From: a virus
Length of the DNA stretch: 64,000 nt
IMG/VR virus record: IMGVR_UViG_3300045988_161046
Span: 37,807-101,806 of that record
Direction: 5' to 3' (one strand)
Every line of letters starts with the position of its first letter. The stretch's first letter is position 1. The position numbers were made by a program, and so were the translations under genes. The notes below the pieces were generated by a model. It saw only the letters and a list, made by a program, of their open reading frames with translations. It made no database searches and had not been told where the DNA came from. Shown one piece after another: positions 4,992 to 59,210 of this stretch.

Positions 4992-5864
4992 CTACTTCGG
5001 CATACTTGCCAATATCTCCTTCGTAAAGTTCTCATAGTCTTGCCCTACTCTACTGTAAGGCGAATAAGAAAATATATCCTGATTGATAGCCTGCGCTTCC
5101 ACCATCTTCGTATCACGACGAGTATACGAGTCGAACATGTAGTCATCAAACTTATTGCCCAGATACTCCTTAAACTGCTTTGTGGCTCTCGTCTGATCAT
5201 TACTCATTACCATAAACAGACCACGAATATCAATATCAGGGTTCAAGTCTTCTCGCGTTTCCTGTACCGCATTCAGAATTTCGGCAATACCTTTTGTTGC
5301 CAACATTTCAAGCTGGATAGGTATCACTACACCCGATGCAACCGATAGGGCATTATGCGTGAGAAGTGACAAAGCTGGTGGGCAGTCAATCAATACATAG
5401 TCGAAAGCCTCCAGGATAGAAGATACTCCCTCATTTATCAGTTCATCACCCCGAACTTCGGTCAAAGGCTTGCCGAATAACTTAAACAAAGCCTTGCGTG
5501 GTACCGGCATCTGATTGAGGAATGGTTCGATATTGATAAGGCGATAAGATGCTGGAGCAAGATAGATACCTTCCCTTACCTGGTAAACAGGCAAGCGGGA
5601 TTGCTGTATCATCGCATCGTACATGGTAGGCTGCCCCATATTCTCTGCCTCACTCCATCCAAAGAGGAAGGAAAGGCTCGACTGCGGATCGAGGTCGATG
5701 AGCAAGATACGAGGCTTGCGCTCCTTGCCGTTTTCACCCTTGCCAAAGTAACCCTTGCCATAACGACGAAGACCAGTTGCTAAACTCTGTACGGTTGTTG
5801 TCTTACCAACTCCTCCCTTGTGATTTACGAAGGCGAGGATTTCTTTTAATCTTGTTTCTGCCAT
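4992..5864 (-). CDS. parA: ParA/Soj-family partition ATPase
   Basis: Deviant Walker A NHKGGVGKTTT; Walker B-like VLIDCPP. Confidence 0.85.
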   Translation of the reverse strand: MAETRLKEILAFVNHKGGVGKTTTVQSLATGLRRYGKGYFGKGENGKERKPRILLIDLDPQSSLSFLFGWSEAENMGQPTMYDAMIQQSRLPVYQVREGIYLAPASYRLINIEPFLNQMPVPRKALFKLFGKPLTEVRGDELINEGVSSILEAFDYVLIDCPPALSLLTHNALSVASGVVIPIQLEMLATKGIAEILNAVQETREDLNPDIDIRGLFMVMSNDQTRATKQFKEYLGNKFDDYMFDSYTRRDTKMVEAQAINQDIFSYSPYSRVGQDYENFTKEILASMPK

Positions 5865-6282: not shown

Positions 6283-6324
6283 TGTTTTTTACCTTCTCAT
6301 TTATCTTCTCAAAAGGAAAGGAAA

Positions 6325-6385
6325 AAGAAAACGTACCAAAGTATCGAAGTACGATAGTACTAAAGTGCTTTGGTACGTTTTCTTT
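6325..6385. repeat. 18-bp-stem hairpin
   Basis: aaagaaaacgtaccaaag ... ctttggtacgttttcttt. Confidence 0.6.
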
Positions 6386-6389
6386 TTCA

Positions 6390-6536
6390 GTGTTGAATGT
6401 TGAGTGTTAAATGTTGAATTTGGCTAGCGCCCTTGAGCCTGGTGGGGGACCAGCGATAGAATCGCTGGGGACGGGGGCGATAGGAAGAAACGCAACCCCG
6501 ATAGACTAATTCAACATTCAACACTCAACATTGAAA
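6390..6536. repeat. Class-C palindrome C1: (GTTGART)n arms 6390-6420 / 6509-6536 enclosing Class-A copy
   Basis: gtgttgaatgttgagtgttaaatgttgaatt ... aattcaacattcaacactcaacattgaa. Confidence 0.85.
6447..6479 (+). repeat. Class-A hairpin element copy 2
   Basis: ggaccagcgatagaatcgctggggacgggggcg. Confidence 0.9.
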
Positions 6537-25224: not shown

Positions 25225-26337
25225 CTATTTCCCAATAAACCAATTTACGTTCCAATTATTACCATCATATATTAATTCTGTTCTCTGGTTGTATGCACCC
25301 GAAGTGAAGCTATTTCTAGAAACTCCGTACCAAGACATATTATTAAGTGATGATTTAATAACAAAGTTGTCACCAGCTTGTATAAACTTATAATATTGAC
25401 CTCTCTGAGGTTTATCGGGGAGTGTTAGCGTTACGCCTCTTGTTACTATAATGAAGCAATCCATCTCAGATAATGTAATACTCTTATTGACTTTTCTTGT
25501 CACAGGACGTAATCCAGCATACATTCCTCTAGATGCGCATATTGCAAAGTTGCCTGATGGTTCATCGGAATAGCTACTTTGTTCCCTTGTTCCACCTTCG
25601 GCATGCAATACTAAACATGCCTTAGAATCGTCTGGTCGGTACTCTCGGTCGTCTATCCTTATATCAGATATTAGATTACTAATACCATAAATTGGGGAGA
25701 CACGCTTTGTAGTACCAATCCAGATAATTCTATCATTAGTTGTATGGTCAGTTGTGTGTGTGAAGAATAAACTATTCTCTGATAATTGCATTGGTTTGTG
25801 CGTGGTGTTATAACCATCGTCATATTCTAAGATTCCATTGTCTGTCAATGTGAATCTACCTATTCTTCCCATTAACGCATAGATTGCTCCATCTTGCGTC
25901 ACATGGAATGGAGCATTTTTAGCATTATCCGCACCAACAAAGAGAGGAGCATAGGTAGTATCATCTACCTTGCAAGCTTCCATATTCTCGGTATTTCCGA
26001 AATATCCCACATTGGCAGTTCCGTCCTCGGACTTCGCCCAAAGATGCTTAACCTCGATTTTATCTGCATCAATCAGGTTAGCATTGAGCTTACCATTACT
26101 GAACATGGCAATGGTGTTATTGTTCTCATCAATAACGCTCGTCTGCTTCGCCTTGATAGCAACACTATCCGAACCGATTACAATACCAGCCGCCGTCATG
26201 TCCTTAACCAACTGAGTAAAGTTCCCGATAGGCGTACTCTCATTCGTTGCAGTAATGAGACGAACAATCTCCGTCTCACTCGCTGTTTTGGGCTTTCTGC
26301 CTACCTTTACAACACCTTGCGCACTATGTCCAGCCAT
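25225..26337 (-). CDS. tail-fibre-like protein
   Basis: N-terminal region ...NGKLNANLIDADKIEVKHLWAK... resembles tail-fibre shaft motifs; position in the tail module. Confidence 0.45.
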   Translation of the reverse strand: MAGHSAQGVVKVGRKPKTASETEIVRLITATNESTPIGNFTQLVKDMTAAGIVIGSDSVAIKAKQTSVIDENNNTIAMFSNGKLNANLIDADKIEVKHLWAKSEDGTANVGYFGNTENMEACKVDDTTYAPLFVGADNAKNAPFHVTQDGAIYALMGRIGRFTLTDNGILEYDDGYNTTHKPMQLSENSLFFTHTTDHTTNDRIIWIGTTKRVSPIYGISNLISDIRIDDREYRPDDSKACLVLHAEGGTREQSSYSDEPSGNFAICASRGMYAGLRPVTRKVNKSITLSEMDCFIIVTRGVTLTLPDKPQRGQYYKFIQAGDNFVIKSSLNNMSWYGVSRNSFTSGAYNQRTELIYDGNNWNVNWFIGK

Positions 26338-26355
26338 AGTATACCTCCTTTCTTT

Positions 26356-26775
26356 TTATACGTTAGCGTTAATTATCTCAACTGCCTTTCTAGCAATTTC
26401 CTTTGCGTGGATGCGCCACTCTTGCATCGCCTTATACTCTGCAATATACTCCTCACGCTTGCTATCATCCAAGGAAATTGATGCCACAGCACTATTCTGA
26501 GCCAACTCGAAGTTAAGACGAATGGCATCCATCTTGTCTGAAGGGTACTTGTCTTCGATGATTGCAGACGCGATTGCATCATAGCTACGGATGCCGCCAC
26601 GAAGCTCGATGTATTCGGCACTATACGCATTATCACCAACAACTACATTACCTTCACTATCATTCTTAGGCTCGGACTTCACGTAGTCGAAAGTAACACG
26701 CATCCAATCACTACTAACCTTTACTGAGACGTTCTCCTTTGGAGCTTCGCCAACCAAATCAAAATATGTTTTCAT
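26356..26775 (-). CDS. hypothetical protein (downstream of DGR RT)
   Basis: ORF track; acidic. Confidence 0.55.
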   Translation of the reverse strand: MKTYFDLVGEAPKENVSVKVSSDWMRVTFDYVKSEPKNDSEGNVVVGDNAYSAEYIELRGGIRSYDAIASAIIEDKYPSDKMDAIRLNFELAQNSAVASISLDDSKREEYIAEYKAMQEWRIHAKEIARKAVEIINANV

Positions 26776-26809
26776 ATCTGTCTTTATTTTTAATGTTTAA
26801 CAATCCTGT

Positions 26810-28258
26810 TTAATCCAAGTCGTAAGTAAAGTTACCACCACGAAGGAAGACTATAGATGCGAAAGTTTCCAATGGGTAGATGTTTTGTTGCCTTCCCAAA
26901 TTAAGTTTTTCAATGATGCGCTTGCTTGTAGTACAGAACTTATATTTCTCACTATTAGCATCATCCTTGAAAGAAAACATCACCCAACAGCGACCACTTT
27001 TATTTGCTATCGTCACATTATCCTCGAAATCGTGAATGATTATCGGTACATGTGTCTGTGCCAACTCTGCAAGTTTCTTCTCCAGTACGTCAAAGACACG
27101 CTTACCATCCTTATCCACATTTACTTGACTTGTAGTAATTCCATGTTCTTTAAAACTCATGTTATTTTCCTTTAATATCGTATTCCATAAATTATTACAT
27201 TTTCCCCATTTAGCTATTCCCCAATAGGAAGCATACAACTCTTTCCTTCTTTTGCGGCTCTTTACTCCATGAAAGCTTTTCACCATGTTGAGTTTGGTAC
27301 GCTTACGCATTCTCATGTTTTTACGGGAAAATACATATCCCACAAAGTCGATGCTGCGACCATCTATCAGCTTACTCTCATCCATCAATGGTGCAACATA
27401 GCTACTACATTTCACTACCATTCCAATACGACTAAGAATATCATCAAAGCACCTCAATAACTCATTGGCTTCTTCCTTGGTTCTAACCATCGCAACTATA
27501 TCATCGCAATGCCTATGATAAAACTCTATGTGCAATTTCTGCTTGGCATATCTGTCAACTTCCGAAAGTACGAGATTGCCGATTATCTGCTTGATGCAGT
27601 TACCTAGTGTTATACCTCGTTCTTCACCTACATAAGCAAGTGGAGTATTCGAAGTCCAAGGACACGTTGCACGTTTCTTGGCATCTTCTTCCAGCAACAA
27701 AGGCTCAATATCCGATTCATAGTCTAAAACCGTCTTCTCTATTAGTTCTAAGAATAGGTCATCATCAATGTACCTTCTCAACGCATTCATTACAACCTTG
27801 TGAGGCAAAGACGGATAGAACTTCCTTATATCTAGCTTTACTACGTAATGAAGATTAGGATGCTTACGCAATAGCTGTTGGGTTCTCAAAGCTGCGAATA
27901 CTTGACCCTTACCCTTTCTTCCTGCCGAAGAATCGTATATCAGAATCTTCTCAACTATAGGCTCGAACACTACCTTAATGGCATGATAGAGGATATTCCA
28001 AGGCATGAAGTGTTGTGGATATATCACTCTGTCCTTATCCTTTGCGTGAAGAACCCTGGGACGATAAGGCTTCGTAGGATATTCTCGCAAAATTATCATA
28101 CTTTGAATCTTTTCGAGATTTGCAGTCTCATTTTTAAGAAACTGCTTCACGTACCAAGCTTCCTTATCTTTTACCACACTTGTTGCATCATTCGCACCTT
28201 CCAATAAGGTTTCCATCTTTATCACCTTGTCAATAAGATGCCTTGCTTTCTTTGTCAT
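26810..28258 (-). CDS. DGR reverse transcriptase
   Basis: RT motifs LDIRKFYPSLPH, GITLGNCIKQIIGNLVLSEVD (DGR-type (I/L)GxxxSQ-like), HCDDIVAM; sits directly downstream of TR; ~150 aa C-terminal extension. Confidence 0.85.
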   Translation of the reverse strand: MTKKARHLIDKVIKMETLLEGANDATSVVKDKEAWYVKQFLKNETANLEKIQSMIILREYPTKPYRPRVLHAKDKDRVIYPQHFMPWNILYHAIKVVFEPIVEKILIYDSSAGRKGKGQVFAALRTQQLLRKHPNLHYVVKLDIRKFYPSLPHKVVMNALRRYIDDDLFLELIEKTVLDYESDIEPLLLEEDAKKRATCPWTSNTPLAYVGEERGITLGNCIKQIIGNLVLSEVDRYAKQKLHIEFYHRHCDDIVAMVRTKEEANELLRCFDDILSRIGMVVKCSSYVAPLMDESKLIDGRSIDFVGYVFSRKNMRMRKRTKLNMVKSFHGVKSRKRRKELYASYWGIAKWGKCNNLWNTILKENNMSFKEHGITTSQVNVDKDGKRVFDVLEKKLAELAQTHVPIIIHDFEDNVTIANKSGRCWVMFSFKDDANSEKYKFCTTSKRIIEKLNLGRQQNIYPLETFASIVFLRGGNFTYDLD

Positions 28259-28466
28259 TATTTCAAAGAGTCGCTTATTTTTCCTCGCCCTAGGCTTTTC
28301 TCCATACTGGCTGCATGGCTACATCACCTAGCTTGTCTGTAATTTAATACTGACCTTTCTGCGTATATGTTTTGGCAGTCCACTAAAGACCGCCAAGGTT
28401 CACGAAACTCAATCGAAAATGGTTTCTCTCTATAGGAGAGACTACTTTTCTGCCTTGATTGATTTT

Positions 28467-28583
28467 ATAAGTTAGACGAGCCCCGTAATTCGTCCTGCGG
28501 TTATCGAAAGCGTTATTCGAATTGACGCAACCGAGACCGCTGTGCGACTGGTTGTTGGAATTGCCACCCCAGATACAGAGCTT
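28467..28583 (-). repeat. DGR template repeat (TR)
   Basis: Gap-free alignment to 28780-28896; Asn (AAY)-rich reading ...WGGNSNNQSHSGLGCVNSNNAFDNRRTNYGARLTY. Confidence 0.9.
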
Positions 28584-28730
28584 ATGTTTCGTTCCACCTT
28601 TTATGCGAGTTGTTTGCGAATTTATGTGAATGTTAATAATTTAATTATTTAACTCTTATGCTCGCTCGCTACGGCTCGCTCGGTTTTTAATTGCCTTGCT
28701 TGCCATAGCTTGCTTGCGTTTTTTGGTGCT

Positions 28731-28749
28731 GCTGACCCTAAAGGTCAGC
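28731..28749. other. 7-bp-stem hairpin at the target gene stop (VR-flanking)
   Basis: gctgacc-ctaaa-ggtcagc. Confidence 0.6.
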
Positions 28750-30039
28750 TCCGTTTACGATTTTCGGTAATGCGCCATAATAAGCGAGACGAGCCCCGCA
28801 ATCCGCCCTGCGGATATCGAAAGCGTTACTCGAATGGACGCAACCGAGACCGCCGCGCGACCGGGCGCCGGAATAGCCACCCCAGATACAGAGCTGCCCA
28901 ACAGGCTTATTATTGCCGTCATAGCACCAATACTTATCTCCCCAACGGCTACCAGAGCCACCTCCACCTTGTGAAGGAATGAGGTCGAAATGTTCACCAA
29001 TCGCCATCTTTGCTATCCACATTTCTTGACTTCCCAATCGTTGAATAGTACGATATGTTCCTGTAGGATGGCTAATAAGTTCCGCATCGGTCGGCAGTCG
29101 ATTACCTTCGTATATAAACGCCTCTAGTCCAGTCTGTCCTTCATTGTTTACATTACCGAAATAGATACCTTGTCTCATTTCCCATTGCCAGTTGTACCAG
29201 TCCTCGACACCAAAGAGAGATACACGACAAGCATTCGGTGCATTAGTTAACGTGATAGGTATCTTACCGCAACTATCTCCAAGTGATATTGTTGCACCCG
29301 TCTTCAACTGAGAAACTCCACCCCAGTTGTCTGCCCATTCACCTTCACCGCCAACACCATTTCCGATATTAGCTTGTACGTTAGGATTGCCATACTCGGA
29401 TAGGTTTGTCATCATTCCCCATTGACCATGCTCGTAGCAAGTGATACCATAATCCTTACCATTGTTTCTAGCGAGATTCCAGAAATCACGGATAAATCTG
29501 CTTCCTGATACATCAATGTTCTTACCGCTACGAGAATGAAGAGCATTACCAGCAACACTACCCATGTATGCACCAATCATCGGATGCTCGATATAATAGC
29601 CACCAATAGGATATTGTGACTGCCATACAACATTGCATCCCATTGATGCATCATACTTAACGACAAAATAAAGGCGTGGAGCTACCACGAATACATCACC
29701 TTTCGATTCATCAACGGTCGTACCATCCGCAAAAATCGAACTATTGATAGATGATAGTTTTGCCATCTTCTCACCTCCAGTCTTCACAAGGTAGCGACCG
29801 ATAGCTCTCTTGTACTCTTCCCATAAGGAGAGATTACCTATTCTTCCCCAATTTTGACTATCTTCGTCTTGTTTGATAGGTGTACCCCACGCTATCAGAG
29901 CCAAATCAAGTTGATTAGTCTGAATAGAGTTAGCCAAATCAGACAGCTTGATACGTCTGAGCGAGCCACCAACCTCTATCAATAAAGTATCACCCTTAAC
30001 CATTGATGATACCAATGCTACTGTTGCAAGATTTTTCAT
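28738..30039 (-). CDS. DGR variable protein; receptor-binding/tail-fibre candidate with C-type-lectin-like C-terminus
   Basis: VR lies in the last ~50 codons (...CIWGGYSGARSRGGLGCVHSSNAFDIRRADCGARLAYY...). Confidence 0.85.
   Translation of the reverse strand: MKNLATVALVSSMVKGDTLLIEVGGSLRRIKLSDLANSIQTNQLDLALIAWGTPIKQDEDSQNWGRIGNLSLWEEYKRAIGRYLVKTGGEKMAKLSSINSSIFADGTTVDESKGDVFVVAPRLYFVVKYDASMGCNVVWQSQYPIGGYYIEHPMIGAYMGSVAGNALHSRSGKNIDVSGSRFIRDFWNLARNNGKDYGITCYEHGQWGMMTNLSEYGNPNVQANIGNGVGGEGEWADNWGGVSQLKTGATISLGDSCGKIPITLTNAPNACRVSLFGVEDWYNWQWEMRQGIYFGNVNNEGQTGLEAFIYEGNRLPTDAELISHPTGTYRTIQRLGSQEMWIAKMAIGEHFDLIPSQGGGGSGSRWGDKYWCYDGNNKPVGQLCIWGGYSGARSRGGLGCVHSSNAFDIRRADCGARLAYYGALPKIVNGADL
28780..28896 (-). 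repeat. DGR variable repeat (VR)
   Basis: 16 mismatches to TR, all at TR coding-strand adenines. Confidence 0.9.
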
Positions 30040-30064
30040 ATTTTGCTATTTTTATGTTACTAAA

Positions 30065-31270
30065 TCAGTTACCAATTAAGTATTCTCCGTTCTCATCAAC
30101 GAGGGGTTCAGAACCATCAGAGAAGAAGTCGAAGCTCGGCTTGTATTCAGCATCACATCTTATCTCCAACTCATCATCAGCAGTTTCGCCTAAACCAGTA
30201 TCAGAGATATTGAAGATTGCCGTATCGCCCTCTTGCCATTGCCTTGTAGTTGTAGCACCGCCATTTTCGGCAATAGTGCTCCAATTGAGTTTGAGGACAT
30301 TAGCAGGGCAGTCCACGATGTTACCCTCTGAATTGACTAGAGCAATCTGTTGTCGGTTGTCAACTCCAGGAGATATGTCTACGTTCTGTCCTGCCGATAC
30401 GCTATACTTCGGATAGGTTCGGGAGACAGATATTTGCTTGTTGCATACTTCCGTATCGCCCACAAATGCCCTAATTACGTATAATGCCGAATTAATCAGT
30501 CTTAAATCAAGTGCGATGTAACTTGTGTTGATTGCTGCCACCTCATTCATTCCTACGCTTATCTGTGTCATCGAAGAACCGCTCATCTTGTAGAGCTTGA
30601 TAGTGTAGCCAGAAGTAATACTCTTTGCGCCCTTGTAGATGTGGAGAGGAATATTTCTCAGATAAGCCTTCTCATCAATGCAAGCGTTCCTAACAGCATC
30701 GGATGCAGCTATCATTCCATGAGCTACCTTGTAGTCGTACAGAAGCAATCTATCTAACATCGGATTGTAGATGATAGTCTCATCATCATCAATAGCCATT
30801 GAATAGGCATCATCGCTCTTTGCAACCGTGTTCAGAACTACCTCATCTGTAAGGATAGGAACATTGATTTTGGTTCGATAGTCAACGATGTCAGCCTTGA
30901 ACCTCAGAGCAAATCGTTCTGTTACTGCTACATTACGGAATATGGTAAGGTCTCCACGTGTAGCACCATCCTGATTAATTGAGTAATCCGATGCAGCCCA
31001 TACATTGCTTATATCCTCGCCGTTGACAAGCCACACCATGTTGGCAAGTACCGCATTTGCTTGCTGATACTTCCACGTTCCATCGCTTGCATAAGCTGTG
31101 ATGTCTGGGTGTAACACACAAGGTGTGTTGGCTCGGTTCGGCTCGAAGCTACTATTAACCACGTTCCACACTTGCGTTGTAGGAGAGCCGCCCGACACAC
31201 ATACGATTGATTTTGCCGTATTGAGAGGTGCAAAAGACCTTCTTATTCTTACTGCGTTGTTTGTTGCCAT
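30065..31270 (-). CDS. virion structural protein (tail/fibre module)
   Basis: ORF track; beta-rich; synteny only. Confidence 0.55.
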   Translation of the reverse strand: MATNNAVRIRRSFAPLNTAKSIVCVSGGSPTTQVWNVVNSSFEPNRANTPCVLHPDITAYASDGTWKYQQANAVLANMVWLVNGEDISNVWAASDYSINQDGATRGDLTIFRNVAVTERFALRFKADIVDYRTKINVPILTDEVVLNTVAKSDDAYSMAIDDDETIIYNPMLDRLLLYDYKVAHGMIAASDAVRNACIDEKAYLRNIPLHIYKGAKSITSGYTIKLYKMSGSSMTQISVGMNEVAAINTSYIALDLRLINSALYVIRAFVGDTEVCNKQISVSRTYPKYSVSAGQNVDISPGVDNRQQIALVNSEGNIVDCPANVLKLNWSTIAENGGATTTRQWQEGDTAIFNISDTGLGETADDELEIRCDAEYKPSFDFFSDGSEPLVDENGEYLIGN

Positions 31271-46206: not shown

Positions 46207-46356
46207 TTATTCATACTCTAATAATATTTTCGGTTTATCAACATCATGCCCTTTGCCCCCCCCACAAAGGCATAGGGCAATACCTTTCGGATGCACGATA
46301 ATGCCATTTTGGGATGGACTATAAGAACCGAGGATAATAGGACGATTACAAATCAT
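46207..46356 (-). CDS. detached C5-MTase TRD-core mini-ORF a (49 aa) containing a G8 tract
   Basis: MICNRPIILGSYSPSQNGIIVHPKGIALCLCGGGKGHDVDKPKILLEYE; its ATG overlaps the MTase TGA (ATGA); C8 at 46256-46263. Confidence 0.45.
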   Translation of the reverse strand: MICNRPIILGSYSPSQNGIIVHPKGIALCLCGGGKGHDVDKPKILLEYE

Positions 46357-47654
46357 TTCTTCTCCAAAAACTGATGATACAAATTATCTAACTTTGGATT
46401 TTGGAACTTGCCGTTCTCTTTCCAGTCATTGAACAGCGGCATGATGATGTCCTCGTGAGCAGAAGAAATCTCCTCCTGCAGTTCTTTTAGAGTGCAATTC
46501 CAAAGATGCGCCTCTTCTATATAAAGAGTGAGGATGGCTTTCAATGCCATTGCATTCTCGTGGCTCGGCTCTATCTCGAACTGATGGAAGACGCAGGTGT
46601 CTTTATCGTTTGCCTGGAGGAATTTGCTGACGGCTTCATCTTTCAGGAAGAACCTTGTATCTACTTCTTCCTGCAACACATCTTCCAGCTTTCTCTTCAG
46701 CGGAATAGGGTCGGGGAACTGGTAATCGAAGGCTACATCTTTTCTCATCGAGAGGCAGAATACTCGGTCGCGGTTCTGCGGAACACCATAGTCTTTGGCA
46801 TTGAGTCTTGCCCATCGGCTTACGTAACCGAGAGATGAGAGCTTATCAAGCCACTTCTGAAAATCGGGCATAAACTTCTCACTTACCAGGGCTGCCACAT
46901 TCTCCTGGAGTAGATACTTCGGTCGCAATACTTCCACGGCATCGGCTACTCGCCACAATAATGCCGAGCGGGTATCGGAACCTTCCTTCAAACCCATCTG
47001 CTTGCCGGCTTGCGATATATCCTGACAAGGTGAGGAATAGGTAAAGAGGTCGATTTCTTGCCCCCCCACATTACGCTTTACCTGTTGCCAGTCGATTTTG
47101 GTTATATCGCCCAAGGCTTTGTCGGCAAACTGCGGAAAGATGAGATTGTGCATCTGACAGGCATACTTATCTATATCGCTCCAGCCTACACACGTCCAGC
47201 GGAAATCAGGGTGCTGCTGGGCGAGGACATCGGCTGCCATCAACTGCGAGTCGTAACCGGAGAAGGTGGTGAGGATAAGTTTCTCGCCATGGTTCTTATC
47301 TACCGGATAGGTAGGGAGTTGGTCTTCTGGGAAGAAATCGGCAAAAAATGAAGTCTGCGCCTCATGCTTCGGTTCTTTCGGGTACCAGAGTTGCTGATAG
47401 ATGGCTGCGAGCACATCTACCACGATGGAGTTACCTGCCTGCTTGTATTGCTGACTGGCTGATACTGCCATATCTTCTGCCTTTCCCTTGCTCTTATAGC
47501 CGGCTACTCGCTCGGCTGCCTGGGCGTTGGTACTTTGCATCGTGCGGATCACATCATCACGCACACCCATCAGTCGAAAACACTCGAAGGGTGTCAGCTT
47601 TCGGATGGCATAAGACTTAATGGTCTTATCCTTGAAATTGAACTTTGTTATCAT
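46353..47654 (-). CDS. DNA cytosine-5 methyltransferase, circularly permuted motif order IX-X-I-IV-VI-VIII
   Basis: IRKLTPFECFRLMGV (IX), QAGNSIVVDV (X), TTFSGYDSQ (I), SSPCQDISQAGK (IV), LLQENVAAL (VI), VPQNRDRVF (VIII), in that order. Confidence 0.85.
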   Translation of the reverse strand: MITKFNFKDKTIKSYAIRKLTPFECFRLMGVRDDVIRTMQSTNAQAAERVAGYKSKGKAEDMAVSASQQYKQAGNSIVVDVLAAIYQQLWYPKEPKHEAQTSFFADFFPEDQLPTYPVDKNHGEKLILTTFSGYDSQLMAADVLAQQHPDFRWTCVGWSDIDKYACQMHNLIFPQFADKALGDITKIDWQQVKRNVGGQEIDLFTYSSPCQDISQAGKQMGLKEGSDTRSALLWRVADAVEVLRPKYLLQENVAALVSEKFMPDFQKWLDKLSSLGYVSRWARLNAKDYGVPQNRDRVFCLSMRKDVAFDYQFPDPIPLKRKLEDVLQEEVDTRFFLKDEAVSKFLQANDKDTCVFHQFEIEPSHENAMALKAILTLYIEEAHLWNCTLKELQEEISSAHEDIIMPLFNDWKENGKFQNPKLDNLYHQFLEKK

Positions 47655-58313: not shown

Positions 58314-59210
58314 TTAGATTTCAAAATCTTTATCATATTCCATCATTCTCTCGGTAATGATGCGATGAATCAGATAGCCTATTTCCTTGGCGTTAGGATG
58401 CGCCTTGCCGGTACTTTCATGGAAGCGGAGGTCCAGGATATGTTTCCACTCCTTGAGGGTATAGGTATAGGCTACCACCGTATAGGTATCGAGAGGAAGA
58501 ATGCCGCGGGCATCCTGCGGCTTCATGCCCGATTTCAGCAAACGGCGATAGAGCCAGTCGGCTATCTTGCATCCAGCAAGATATAGGAACTTCTGCCATC
58601 GGGTGCCCTCATGCAGCCAATGCGGACGAGCAATCTGCACACCACCTTTCTTCTCCAGGTTCACATAGCGTGTGCTCTGCTCGCTGATACAGTTAGGCGA
58701 TGTGCGGTTCAGCTCACGGCTGGTGCTGATCTGCGTGGTAACAACCATGGTCATGCGGAGGAGATAGAGCGCCTTTTTGCAATCATACTTCAGCGCCTTC
58801 TCGATAAACTCATCTTCCTTCACCTGGTAGGGCGTGAGGAGGTTGAGAGTATCGGGATGCTCGGCCAGAAACTGCATGTTGCTGCTGATCCATACCTTTT
58901 TTTCCTGCACTGCATAGTTGATGTAGGGTGAAGCTACGAGGAGCGACCAAAGTGACCTCGGCAGTCTGTTATCATTCTTGACGAAGAAATAGATGGTGCC
59001 GTGACGGAGCATAGAGCGATGACCGCTCTCCCAGAAACGGTTAACCATCTTTACTGCCTGTTCTTCCCGAAACTCCTCTTTCTTACCTTCAGGAAGATTC
59101 TCGTCAGGCTGTTTTGCCTTACTCTTGTAGCAGATTCTGCCTACTCGGGCAATCTGTTGGGCGGCGGTCTTCTGAGGCCACCACTCAACACCAGGAATTA
59201 TCATTTTCAT
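58314..59210 (-). CDS. ThyX-like (flavin-dependent thymidylate synthase fold) protein with an atypical signature
   Basis: ESGHRSMLRHGTIYFFV and SEQSTRY fit ThyX; where canonical ThyX has RHR, my manual alignment gives LNRTSPNC. Confidence 0.55.
   Translation of the reverse strand: MKMIIPGVEWWPQKTAAQQIARVGRICYKSKAKQPDENLPEGKKEEFREEQAVKMVNRFWESGHRSMLRHGTIYFFVKNDNRLPRSLWSLLVASPYINYAVQEKKVWISSNMQFLAEHPDTLNLLTPYQVKEDEFIEKALKYDCKKALYLLRMTMVVTTQISTSRELNRTSPNCISEQSTRYVNLEKKGGVQIARPHWLHEGTRWQKFLYLAGCKIADWLYRRLLKSGMKPQDARGILPLDTYTVVAYTYTLKEWKHILDLRFHESTGKAHPNAKEIGYLIHRIITERMMEYDKDFEI

Follow-up and report, generated by a model that had tools for sequence, protein, structure and literature searches.

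Does the reverse transcriptase (RT) gene set among the tail genes of a human-gut phage with a genome of ~100 kb belong to a working DGR, and what assists the enzyme if Avd does not? The window analysed here is a 64-kb stretch of one strand of the phage genome. A first-pass annotation had proposed a complete DGR that diversifies the C-terminus of a tail-fibre-like protein. Our results indicate that the locus is almost certainly a genuine and evidently active DGR of the avd-less target-VR-TR-RT layout. DGRs rewriting phage tail fibres are already well known; the unusual point of this one is a helper domain fused to the RT.

Programmatic comparison reproduced the gap-free alignment of TR and VR at an offset of 313, a direct repeat of 116 nt with 86% identity (Table 1). 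The earlier repeat starts (28467 and 28780) held; the ends at 28583 and 28896 did not, as homology stops at 28582/28895 and the flanks diverge completely beyond the repeat ends. The optional 17th mismatch at 28583/28896 is thus outside the homology and is not to be counted. The count of 16 stands, and every one of these mismatches falls, as first read, on a plus-strand T in the copy at 28467, corresponding to an A on the coding minus strand (hypergeometric P = 1.75e-12, given 28 A in the 116-nt TR). The TR-to-VR substitutions comprise 11 A>G, 3 A>C and 2 A>T, and 27 of the 28 TR adenines occupy codon positions 1 or 2. The translations of both repeats were exactly as first given, the AAY-rich TR having 8 AAY codons. 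The 24 mutable adenines, in 16 codons, could yield up to 2.8e14 DNA variants and up to 1.3e14 peptide variants, and a stop codon is impossible. A search for a remote copy found no second VR in the 64-kb window.

Related gut-phage genomes display the same bias on a larger scale. Among 14 VR copies, 235 of 240 differences from TR were located at TR adenines and 5 elsewhere. In this wider set, 15 TR copies represent only 3 sequences, and the 14 VR copies represent 13 distinct alleles; the TR sequence is identical in 8 of 10 close relatives. Across 11 related genomes, the varying VR sites are 24 TR-adenine positions between TR positions 8 and 96, which places the segment really diversified at ~28799–28887. 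Nucleotide diversity is 0.137 in VR, 0.018 in TR and about 0.008–0.04 in the surroundings. Where genomes share 92–97% identity across the locus, VR differs from one genome to the next, while TR and the adjacent spacer are almost identical. Moreover, changes in TR were copied into the VRs of the same genomes (G14T in L018; T95G/A86T in L024), indicating that information passes from an invariant TR to a hypervariable VR. An invariant VR beside a variable TR had been named as evidence against a DGR; the reverse was found, with TR constant and VR varying at adenine sites. The VR variation observed is that between assemblies. Some relatives show decay: the RT gene is split in L018 and LoVEphage, and VR is undiversified in L103.

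The RT gene follows TR as first described. Its ORF (26810–28258, minus strand; 482 aa) is intact, starts 208 nt after TR and matches Pfam RVT_1. The best PDB sequence match of the protein is bRT (8ub7_A, 6e-17; group II, 2.8e-7), which is also its best fold match (E 3.5e-17, TMt 0.87). Two bRT residues, R74 and I181, promote adenine mutagenesis (PMC7826257); the former aligns with the invariant R77 and the latter with L218. The DGR RT signature motif [I/V/L]GxxxSQ (PMC7826257) reads LGNCIKQ, with L, G and Q kept and S replaced by K; subfamily members carry S, N, G or A at this site, and the Q is invariant. The catalytic box departs from the canonical YxDD, its tyrosine being replaced by histidine (HCDD) and both aspartates being kept. 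HCDD is invariant in a subfamily of 43–98% identity, and relatives carry YCDD, YADD or YMDD. The YxDD box is a general RT feature and does not define DGRs.

Two similar repeats could also arise by simple duplication, or by gene conversion linking the 3' end of the fibre gene with a copy that does not code, and the RT nearby would then be an unrelated retron, group II or defence enzyme. The RT has weak likeness to the NCBIfam models of group II, Drt and retron RTs, and some database sources name its homologues 'retron-type RT'. However, all NCBIfam scores are far under the cut-offs (72 versus 300 for group II, 25 versus 235 for retron), bRT is a better match than group II RTs by sequence as well as by fold, and no Rfam family, intron and retron RNAs included, was found in 28100–29000. 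Neither would such an origin account for mismatches confined to adenines in the repeat pair (16 of 16) and nearly so across alleles, or for the finding that 69 of 80 related viral RT loci have an adenine-biased repeat pair immediately upstream of the RT. This origin is effectively refuted, and the RT is of the DGR type, not retron or group II, in agreement with the first-pass annotation.

It might instead be supposed that the DGR is a fossil, inactive in this phage, with the VR differences between contigs being old inherited alleles. The HCDD box, like the K that replaces S in the signature motif, could point to lowered activity, and both the decay in relatives and the between-assembly nature of the variation would fit. 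Yet the RT ORF here is intact, and HCDD enzymes evidently work, because all members of the HCDD subfamily carry adenine-mutated VRs. Old alleles are also difficult to reconcile with closely similar genomes that differ in VR while sharing an almost identical TR and spacer, and with the TR changes copied into VR in L018 and L024. We therefore regard a fossil element as very unlikely and retain an active DGR as the preferred reading.

Table 1 Features of the DGR locus (positions in the 64-kb window)
Feature	Position	Strand	Description
Target gene, 433 aa	28738–30039	−	Tail-collar-fibre-like; VR in frame at 3' end
Variable repeat (VR)	28780–28895	−	Repeat comparison and variation across 11 related genomes
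IMH-like 3' end of VR	28780–28798	−	CGGGGCTCGTCT-CG-CTTAT
Hairpin/cruciform, 7-bp stem	28731–28749	−	GCTGACC-TTTAG-GGTCAGC; 5-nt loop
VR-TR spacer, 197 nt	28583–28779	−	Too short for avd; holds upstream duplex arm
Upstream arm of long-range RNA duplex (predicted)	28586–28598	−	GGU...ACGAAAC; RNAalifold, 11 relatives
Template repeat (TR)	28467–28582	−	28 adenines; gap-free repeat comparison
TR-RT spacer, 208 nt	28259–28466	−	Conserved structured RNA
Downstream duplex arm (predicted)	28397–28408	−	Within TR-RT spacer
Hairpin of TR-RT spacer	28372–28396	−	RNAalifold and pair counts
GCGGAAAGG-hairpin-CAAGC motif	28321–28362	−	Within TR-RT spacer
RT core, residues 1–366	27161–28258	−	Pfam RVT_1; DGR type; HCDD; LGNCIKQ
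Fused accessory domain, RT residues 367–482	26813–27160	−	phrog_19665-like; predicted alpha/beta; not Avd

The 3' ends of VR and TR differ in the manner of an IMH/IMH* pair. CG at 28785–28786 is fixed in all VR alleles and AA at 28472–28473 in all normal TRs, and the G/C-rich GGGGCTCGTCT precedes the CG in all VRs and the AA in all normal TRs. Relatives of 43–55% identity show this two-position difference as well. The TR of L011 (IMGVR_UViG_3300045988_075205), as assembled, departs from the rule in appearing mutated and carrying the IMH. As judged from these alignments, 2 of the 16 mismatches (28472–28473) are a fixed boundary difference of the IMH*/IMH type, not mutagenesis. The first-pass annotation had further likened the hairpin at the target stop to the one at the VR of phage BPP-1, from which the analogy is drawn (PMC3240598). 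A hairpin is indeed present there, 30 nt past the end of VR homology and with the target stop codon TAG inside its loop, and it is kept in L019–L022 through compensatory change (GCAGACC-TGTAG-GGTCTGC). The likeness does not extend to the loop, which has 5 nt and is non-GRNA, or to conservation in all relatives, as L003, L023 and L100 have a degenerate hairpin or none.

VR encodes residues ~382–420 of the 433-residue target, which is located among tail genes and matches phrog_5302 'tail protein' (E 4e-23). Pfam, NCBIfam and PDB sequence and profile searches with the target gave nothing, and fold comparison alone was informative. The only significant PDB fold match of its AlphaFold model (pLDDT 83) is the DGR variable protein TaqVP (5vf4, E 1.7e-8), at a modest TM of 0.37–0.47. 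Tail collar fibre proteins from crAss-like phages are further matches of the model (TMq ~0.7, E 1e-22), and its BFVD fold matches include TvpA-like and FGE-like entries. These comparisons support a receptor-binding, tail-collar-fibre-like protein with a predicted variable end of the C-type-lectin-fold type, much as the first reading had suggested; the C-type-lectin assignment depends on Foldseek E-values, the TM scores being modest.

The spacers flanking TR contribute to a predicted RNA structure. The VR-TR spacer contains no ORF of at least 50 aa on the coding strand and varies less among close relatives than any other stretch (pi 0.008). Two odd direct-repeat pairs also occur inside it. In the alignment of 11 relatives, helix 2 of the duplex formed between the two spacers has 97% pairing, with two-sided changes at 6 of its 7 pairs. 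Overall, 93.9% of cells in the RNA structure are paired, slid controls reaching no more than 45.5%, and two-sided changes occur at 12 pairs. Covariation thus shows a predicted long-range RNA duplex that brackets TR. A scan for sigma-70 promoters and terminators found none on the coding strand; the host is probably a member of the Bacteroidota, whose promoters are outside the scan's models.

Neither the neighbouring genes nor 60 ORFs of middle size in the window matched PF22296 or PF05635, the Pfam bAvd control being positive, and there is no room for avd between VR, TR and RT. Avd is present in ~74% of DGRs and is not obligatory (PMC5758913). The 'complete' DGR of the first-pass annotation is therefore upheld for target, VR, TR and RT, but Avd is absent, and an unrelated domain is fused to the RT instead. 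This domain, to which phrog_19665 ('unknown function') is homologous, measures 102–130 aa with a pI of 6.7–9.2 and is linked to DGRs in three gene positions at 64 of 80 loci. In our phage, hankyphage and LoVEphage it forms part of the RT; it is free in the avd position of relatives, where homologous ORFs were detected at E 1e-15 to 1e-10; and it is free just after the RT, as in L093–L095, in which a separate 114-aa ORF follows a 366-aa RT (51% identity).

PDB profile and Pfam searches with the accessory domain gave nothing, and a match to p202 HIN at E 8.7 is noise. The avd-position ORF of relatives was rejected as a divergent Avd: hhalign against bAvd gave a probability of 0.14%, PF22296 was not matched, and the predicted structure is alpha/beta. 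The CH1 accessory class (160–169 aa, pI 4.7) differs from the domain in size and pI, a comparison made by description only. A 139-aa ORF after the RT (26356–26775) was likewise set aside as an accessory gene, since it is syntenic in relatives and unannotated, and tail-module synteny explains it equally well. We tentatively suggest, at slightly less than an even chance, that the C-terminal 116 residues of the RT represent an undescribed class of DGR accessory factor that stands in for Avd across a large branch of the DGRs of gut phages.

How does the locus relate to known systems? Against named phages, the sole Megablast match of 26000–31000 was a 1.1-kb segment of a record that lacks annotation, and the phage family could not be recognized from PHROG scans of 20 large ORFs. 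The cassette reads target-VR-TR-RT along a single strand and has no free-standing accessory gene, which fits the layout of lineage 3 or Architecture A1 of Wu et al. 2018 (target-TR-RT, no accessory gene; PMC5758913, PMC7290462). The crAss-like DGRs, such as that of crAssphage LMMB (PMC7290462; lineage 3, PMC5758913), share the order TG-VR(IMH)-TR(IMH*)-RT without avd, and their target is a tail-collar fibre protein structurally similar to ours (TMq ~0.7). However, identity to the crAss-like RTs assigned to lineage 3 is only 28–31% over the core, and their C-terminal regions, unlike that of the RT here, gave no match to the profile of the accessory domain at E < 0.01.

Bacteroides phage LoVEphage (MW660583) and hankyphage p00 (BK010646; PMC6199706) have the same arrangement of tail-collar-fibre target, VR, short spacer, TR, ~208-nt spacer and RT, also without avd. 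In hankyphage, VR and TR are each 116 nt and the TR-RT spacer is 208 nt; LoVEphage has flanking gene order in common with our locus. Their RTs carry the same fused C-terminal domain, and all three are human-gut Bacteroidota-type phages. The RTs are nevertheless distant: that of LoVEphage is 37% identical to ours and split into three ORFs, and that of hankyphage is 26% identical and has YCDD in place of HCDD. The phage itself also differs from both, with another genome of ~100 kb and almost no PHROG-annotated genes.

The Bordetella phage BPP-1 DGR (mtd-avd-TR-brt) shares with our locus the adenine-specific transfer from TR to VR, a VR at the tail-fibre 3' end, an IMH/IMH*-type difference, a stop-codon hairpin after VR and the bRT fold (TM 0.87). 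In contrast, its Avd (PF22296) is absent here, its catalytic box is YMDD, the hairpin loop of its class is a 4-nt GRNA, and the RT here is 154 aa longer, with a ~32-aa insertion between motifs and the fused alpha/beta domain. Because there is no Avd, the BPP-1 mechanism is not transferable unchanged.

A working model can nonetheless be outlined. Minus-strand transcription would produce an RNA spanning TR and its flanks, in which the covarying duplex would bracket TR, followed by the conserved hairpins; by analogy with the BPP-1 RNP, the duplex may serve in cDNA priming and stopping. The RT, presumably helped by its fused C-terminal domain in Avd's place, would copy TR into cDNA and misincorporate opposite adenines, as its class and the mutation pattern suggest. 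The cDNA would then replace VR, the 3' limit of transfer, to judge from which adenines vary, lying at the G/C-rich IMH-like end. The AA/CG difference would protect TR, and the stop-codon hairpin may assist. The diversified receptor-binding tip of the tail-collar fibre would let the phage population follow changing host surfaces.

The locus adds one more well-documented case of tail-fibre hypervariation in human-gut phages, and its natural alleles showing TR-to-VR transfer aid annotation of an abundant ~100-kb phage group, whose RT cluster has ~1000 member sequences. About a quarter of DGRs are without Avd. To our knowledge, structural and RNA studies of DGRs have all dealt with the bRT–Avd complex. 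This locus and its relatives offer a candidate replacement, a ~115-aa alpha/beta domain alternating between fused and free forms, which together with the conserved RNA scaffold makes an Avd-independent mechanism directly testable. If this proposal is true, the domain and the covarying TR-bracketing RNA would define an Avd-independent DGR ribonucleoprotein, and this variant may also include the invariant HCDD active site.

On the minus strand, the cassette runs from the target gene with its VR through a 197-nt spacer, the TR and a 208-nt spacer to the RT ORF. The gap-free TR/VR match with a fixed 313-nt offset, noticed in the first-pass annotation, was confirmed over 116 nt. The homology ends abruptly at either side, and the base at 28583/28896, proposed as a possible 17th mismatch, falls outside it. 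As claimed, all 16 mismatches over 116 nt (16/16) lie at a plus-strand T of the TR (the 28467 copy), an adenine on the coding strand; with 28 adenines per 116 nt of TR, the chance of 16/16 differences on adenines is 1.75e-12. The substitutions from TR to VR comprise 11 A>G, three A>C and two A>T. The TR and VR translations given earlier were exact; the AAY codons of the TR number eight, and codon positions 1 and 2 together account for 27 of its 28 adenines. No second VR was found elsewhere in the 64-kb window. Two pairs of 9-nt direct repeats, 5 nt between members, lie in the VR–TR spacer (28655-28720, minus) and read GCAAGCAAG-CTATG-GCAAGCAAG and CGAGCGAGC-CGTAG-CGAGCGAGC, with no suggested function; of two related loci, L003 keeps part of them and L019 is without them.

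Features of the DGR cassette and its flanking RNA elements
Feature	Window position	Strand	Description
Target ORF	30039-28738	minus	433 aa
VR	28780-28895	minus	direct repeat, 116 nt; target residues ~382-420
VR-TR spacer	between VR and TR	minus	197 nt
TR	28467-28582	minus	direct repeat, 116 nt
TR-RT spacer	between TR and RT ORF	minus	208 nt
Long-range RNA duplex	28586-28592 + 28596-28598 pairing with 28402-28408 + 28397-28399	minus	covariation
Hairpin after duplex	28372-28396	minus	in TR-RT spacer
Conserved GCGGAAAGG-hairpin-CAAGC element	28321-28362	minus	in TR-RT spacer
RT ORF	28258-26810	minus	482 aa
Accessory domain	RT residues 367-482	minus	C-terminal extension from invariant methionine M367

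To follow natural variation, we gathered further copies of the locus in ENA, Logan, IMG/VR and JGI contigs, using look-ups of the exact protein and scans for the TR pattern in which N replaced A. Ten close relatives were 92–97% identical from target through RT, and the TR was identical in eight. Overall, 15 TR copies gave only three sequences beside 13 distinct VR alleles, the reverse of the invariant VR and varying TR that the first-pass annotation had named as contrary to its reading. The VRs differed from their own TRs at 235 adenine positions and five other positions. Nucleotide diversity was 0.137 in the VR, 0.018 in the TR, 0.008 in the VR–TR spacer and 0.037–0.039 in the remaining target and the RT. 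The varying adenines number 24, at TR positions 8–96 (counted from 0 along the coding strand), and A0 and A114 are invariant; these 24 allow 2.8e14 variants at the DNA level and 1.3e14 at the peptide level, none of which introduces a stop codon. TR positions 109–110 are AA in all normal TRs and CG in all VRs. Therefore, two of the window's 16 mismatches (28472-28473 vs 28785-28786) represent a constant difference of IMH*/IMH type, not mutagenesis. In relatives with only 43–55% RT identity, TR and VR can be told apart at these two positions as well.

The direction of transfer is visible from TR changes that recur as the same bases in the locus's own VR, namely G14T in the related locus L018 and T95G and A86T in L024. 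In another, L011 (IMGVR_UViG_3300045988_075205), the counterpart of the window TR (6322-6437) is flanked on either side by TR-type sequence, yet its positions 109–110 read CG, as in a VR, and seven more A>N changes leave it with 19 adenines. This copy could reflect natural IMH*-to-IMH conversion followed by TR self-mutagenesis, VR-to-TR conversion or an assembly chimera. In L103 (GCA_965308005.1, RT P0018; repeats at 1900-2014 and 2184-2298), the VR equals the TR save for a 3' IMH-type difference, TTGC vs TAAC; this VR is undiversified or freshly reset, despite an intact RT.

The gene after the TR does encode an RT, as annotated, with a Pfam RVT_1 domain. Its best PDB sequence match is bRT, the RT of Bordetella phage BPP-1 (8ub7_A, E 6e-17), with group II intron RTs ranking behind (E 2.8e-7), and bRT is also the top fold match of its AlphaFold model (pLDDT 88; E 3.5e-17, TM 0.87 on the target structure). 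Assignment to group II, retron or Drt RTs was rejected, the NCBIfam models scoring far under their cut-offs. Compared with bRT, the protein is 154 residues longer, with an insertion of ~32 aa between motifs and a C-terminal extension. The bRT residues R74 and I181, which promote adenine mutagenesis (PMC7826257), align with R77, invariant in the subfamily, and L218. The DGR signature [I/V/L]GxxxSQ reads LGNCIKQ (residues 218–224, window 27587-27607), with K in place of S, whereas relatives have IGxxxSQ. The YxDD box reads HCDD (residues 249–252, window 27503-27514), which is invariant across the subfamily (43–98% identical); relatives carry YCDD (hankyphage), YADD or YMDD (bRT). Directly after the RT lies a 139-aa ORF (26356-26775, minus) without Pfam or PHROG match, and all relatives examined have a 123–159-aa ORF there, followed by a large tail-like protein; the 139-aa ORF may encode a chaperone for the fibre or be just another conserved gene of the tail module.

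Sequence searches of the target against Pfam, NCBIfam and the PDB gave no match, including one with a 25-sequence profile; PHROGs class it as a tail protein (phrog_5302, E 4e-23). The sole significant PDB relative of its AlphaFold model (pLDDT 83, pTM 0.85) is the C-type-lectin-fold variable protein TaqVP of the Thermus aquaticus DGR (E 1.7e-8), and BPP-1 Mtd, the next fold match, is not significant. In a comparison with predicted viral structures, the model matched 'tail collar fiber' proteins from crAss-like phages and from other phages of the gut (TMq ~0.7, E to 1e-27); its matches to FGE-like and TvpA-like entries were weaker. The PHROG and structure matches (TaqVP, tail collar fiber) thus support the earlier reading of a tail-fibre-like protein with a variable end of C-type-lectin type, the latter part on moderate structural scores.

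The cassette has no space for avd, and none of 60 mid-size window ORFs matched the bAvd-like (PF22296) or 23S_rRNA_IVP families (the bAvd control scores 7e-36). The RT instead carries a fused accessory domain. In three related loci (L093–L095), residue 366 is the last of the RT, and an independent ORF of 114 aa that starts 3 nt later is 51% identical to RT residues 367–482 (E 1e-40). A profile of the domain retrieved 174 clusters at 50% identity from 1.84 billion proteins, some fused in 430–580-aa proteins and others free at 100–130 aa. Of 80 viral loci with a related RT, 31 have the domain fused to the RT; in 25, and probably two more, it is a free ORF at the site where avd usually lies, between VR and TR; in six it is free directly after the RT, and in 16 it was undetected. 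The hankyphage and LoVEphage RTs have it fused; those of crAssphage LMMB, cr55_1 and BPP-1 did not match. In its free form the domain corresponds to phrog_19665, whose annotation is 'unknown function', and neither Pfam nor PDB searches gave a sequence relative. It is not Avd itself, showing no bAvd similarity (hhalign probability 0.14%) and a predicted beta-beta-alpha-beta-beta-beta-alpha-beta-beta-beta topology with no helical bundle. Two free accessory proteins (L071:5367-5720 and L098:5001-5309) gave weak, sub-threshold matches to the Pfam family PF09710, 'Treponema clustered lipoprotein' (E 2.5e-4 and 9e-3, respectively). A DGR is well known from Treponema denticola, and these matches are probably noise. 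Known DGR accessory classes are Avd, HRDC, MSL and CH1 (PMC8632793); avd is lacking in 26–29% of DGRs and in 'lineage 3', and ~20% of DGR RTs bear an unexplained C-terminal extension (PMC5758913; PMC7290462). Our literature search found no description of this domain. Because it is linked to DGRs and mobile between positions, we infer that it may substitute for Avd.

The TR is bracketed by a long-range RNA duplex whose arms lie just upstream and ~60 nt downstream. With 11 relatives aligned, pairing holds in 93.9% of cells, vs <=45.5% with slid partners, and both sides change in 12/21 pairs overall and in 6/7 of the main helix. No Rfam family matches within 28100-29000. In arrangement the duplex resembles the 'cPRT Stop' duplex of BPP-1 DGR RNA, whose conservation was surveyed solely in Avd-containing DGRs (preprint 10.1101/2023.10.23.563531), and it may be functionally alike. 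The 7-bp hairpin noticed at the target stop (28731-28749) is present, with TAG inside its loop, 30 nt past the end of VR homology; we roughly estimate that chance alone would place a perfect, short-looped 7-bp inverted repeat within 60 nt with a probability of ~0.02. Its likeness to BPP-1 holds in part: stem length and distance fall within the range of phage DGR hairpins (7–10 bp, 4–34 bp), but the loop is 5 nt rather than the 4-nt GRNA (PMC3240598). A compensatory change maintains the hairpin in related loci L019–L022, and no comparable stem occurs in L003, L023 or L100.

The phage is represented by a 101.8-kb metagenomic contig, most of whose genes lack PHROG annotation; one target homologue is labelled uncultured Prevotella. 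The few annotatable window genes encode a DNA methyltransferase (46353-47654), a thymidylate-synthase-like protein (58314-59210) and a ParA-like partition protein (4992-5864), all on the minus strand; among the small ORFs are those for a GH108 lysin, MazG and a guanylate-kinase-like protein. A lifestyle of plasmid-like or pseudolysogenic type is hinted at by the ParA-like gene. Among named phages, Bacteroides phage LoVEphage has the closest RT (37% identity), and its neighbouring genes are the same as here. Its RT gene is split into three annotated ORFs in the record (L113, MW660583), and that of L018 (IMGVR_UViG_3300045988_089604), whose VR has also lost 3 nt, is broken into two; the breaks reflect either decay of the DGR or frameshifts from sequencing. 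Next after LoVEphage come the hankyphage RT, at 26% identity, and crAss-like phage RTs, at 28–31% over the core. The element is thus a divergent DGR of the avd-less target-VR-TR-RT kind already known from gut Bacteroidota phages. Its existence will not surprise a specialist; what deserves further attention is a modular accessory domain distinct from Avd, an active site that reads HCDD and the covarying RNA that brackets the TR.
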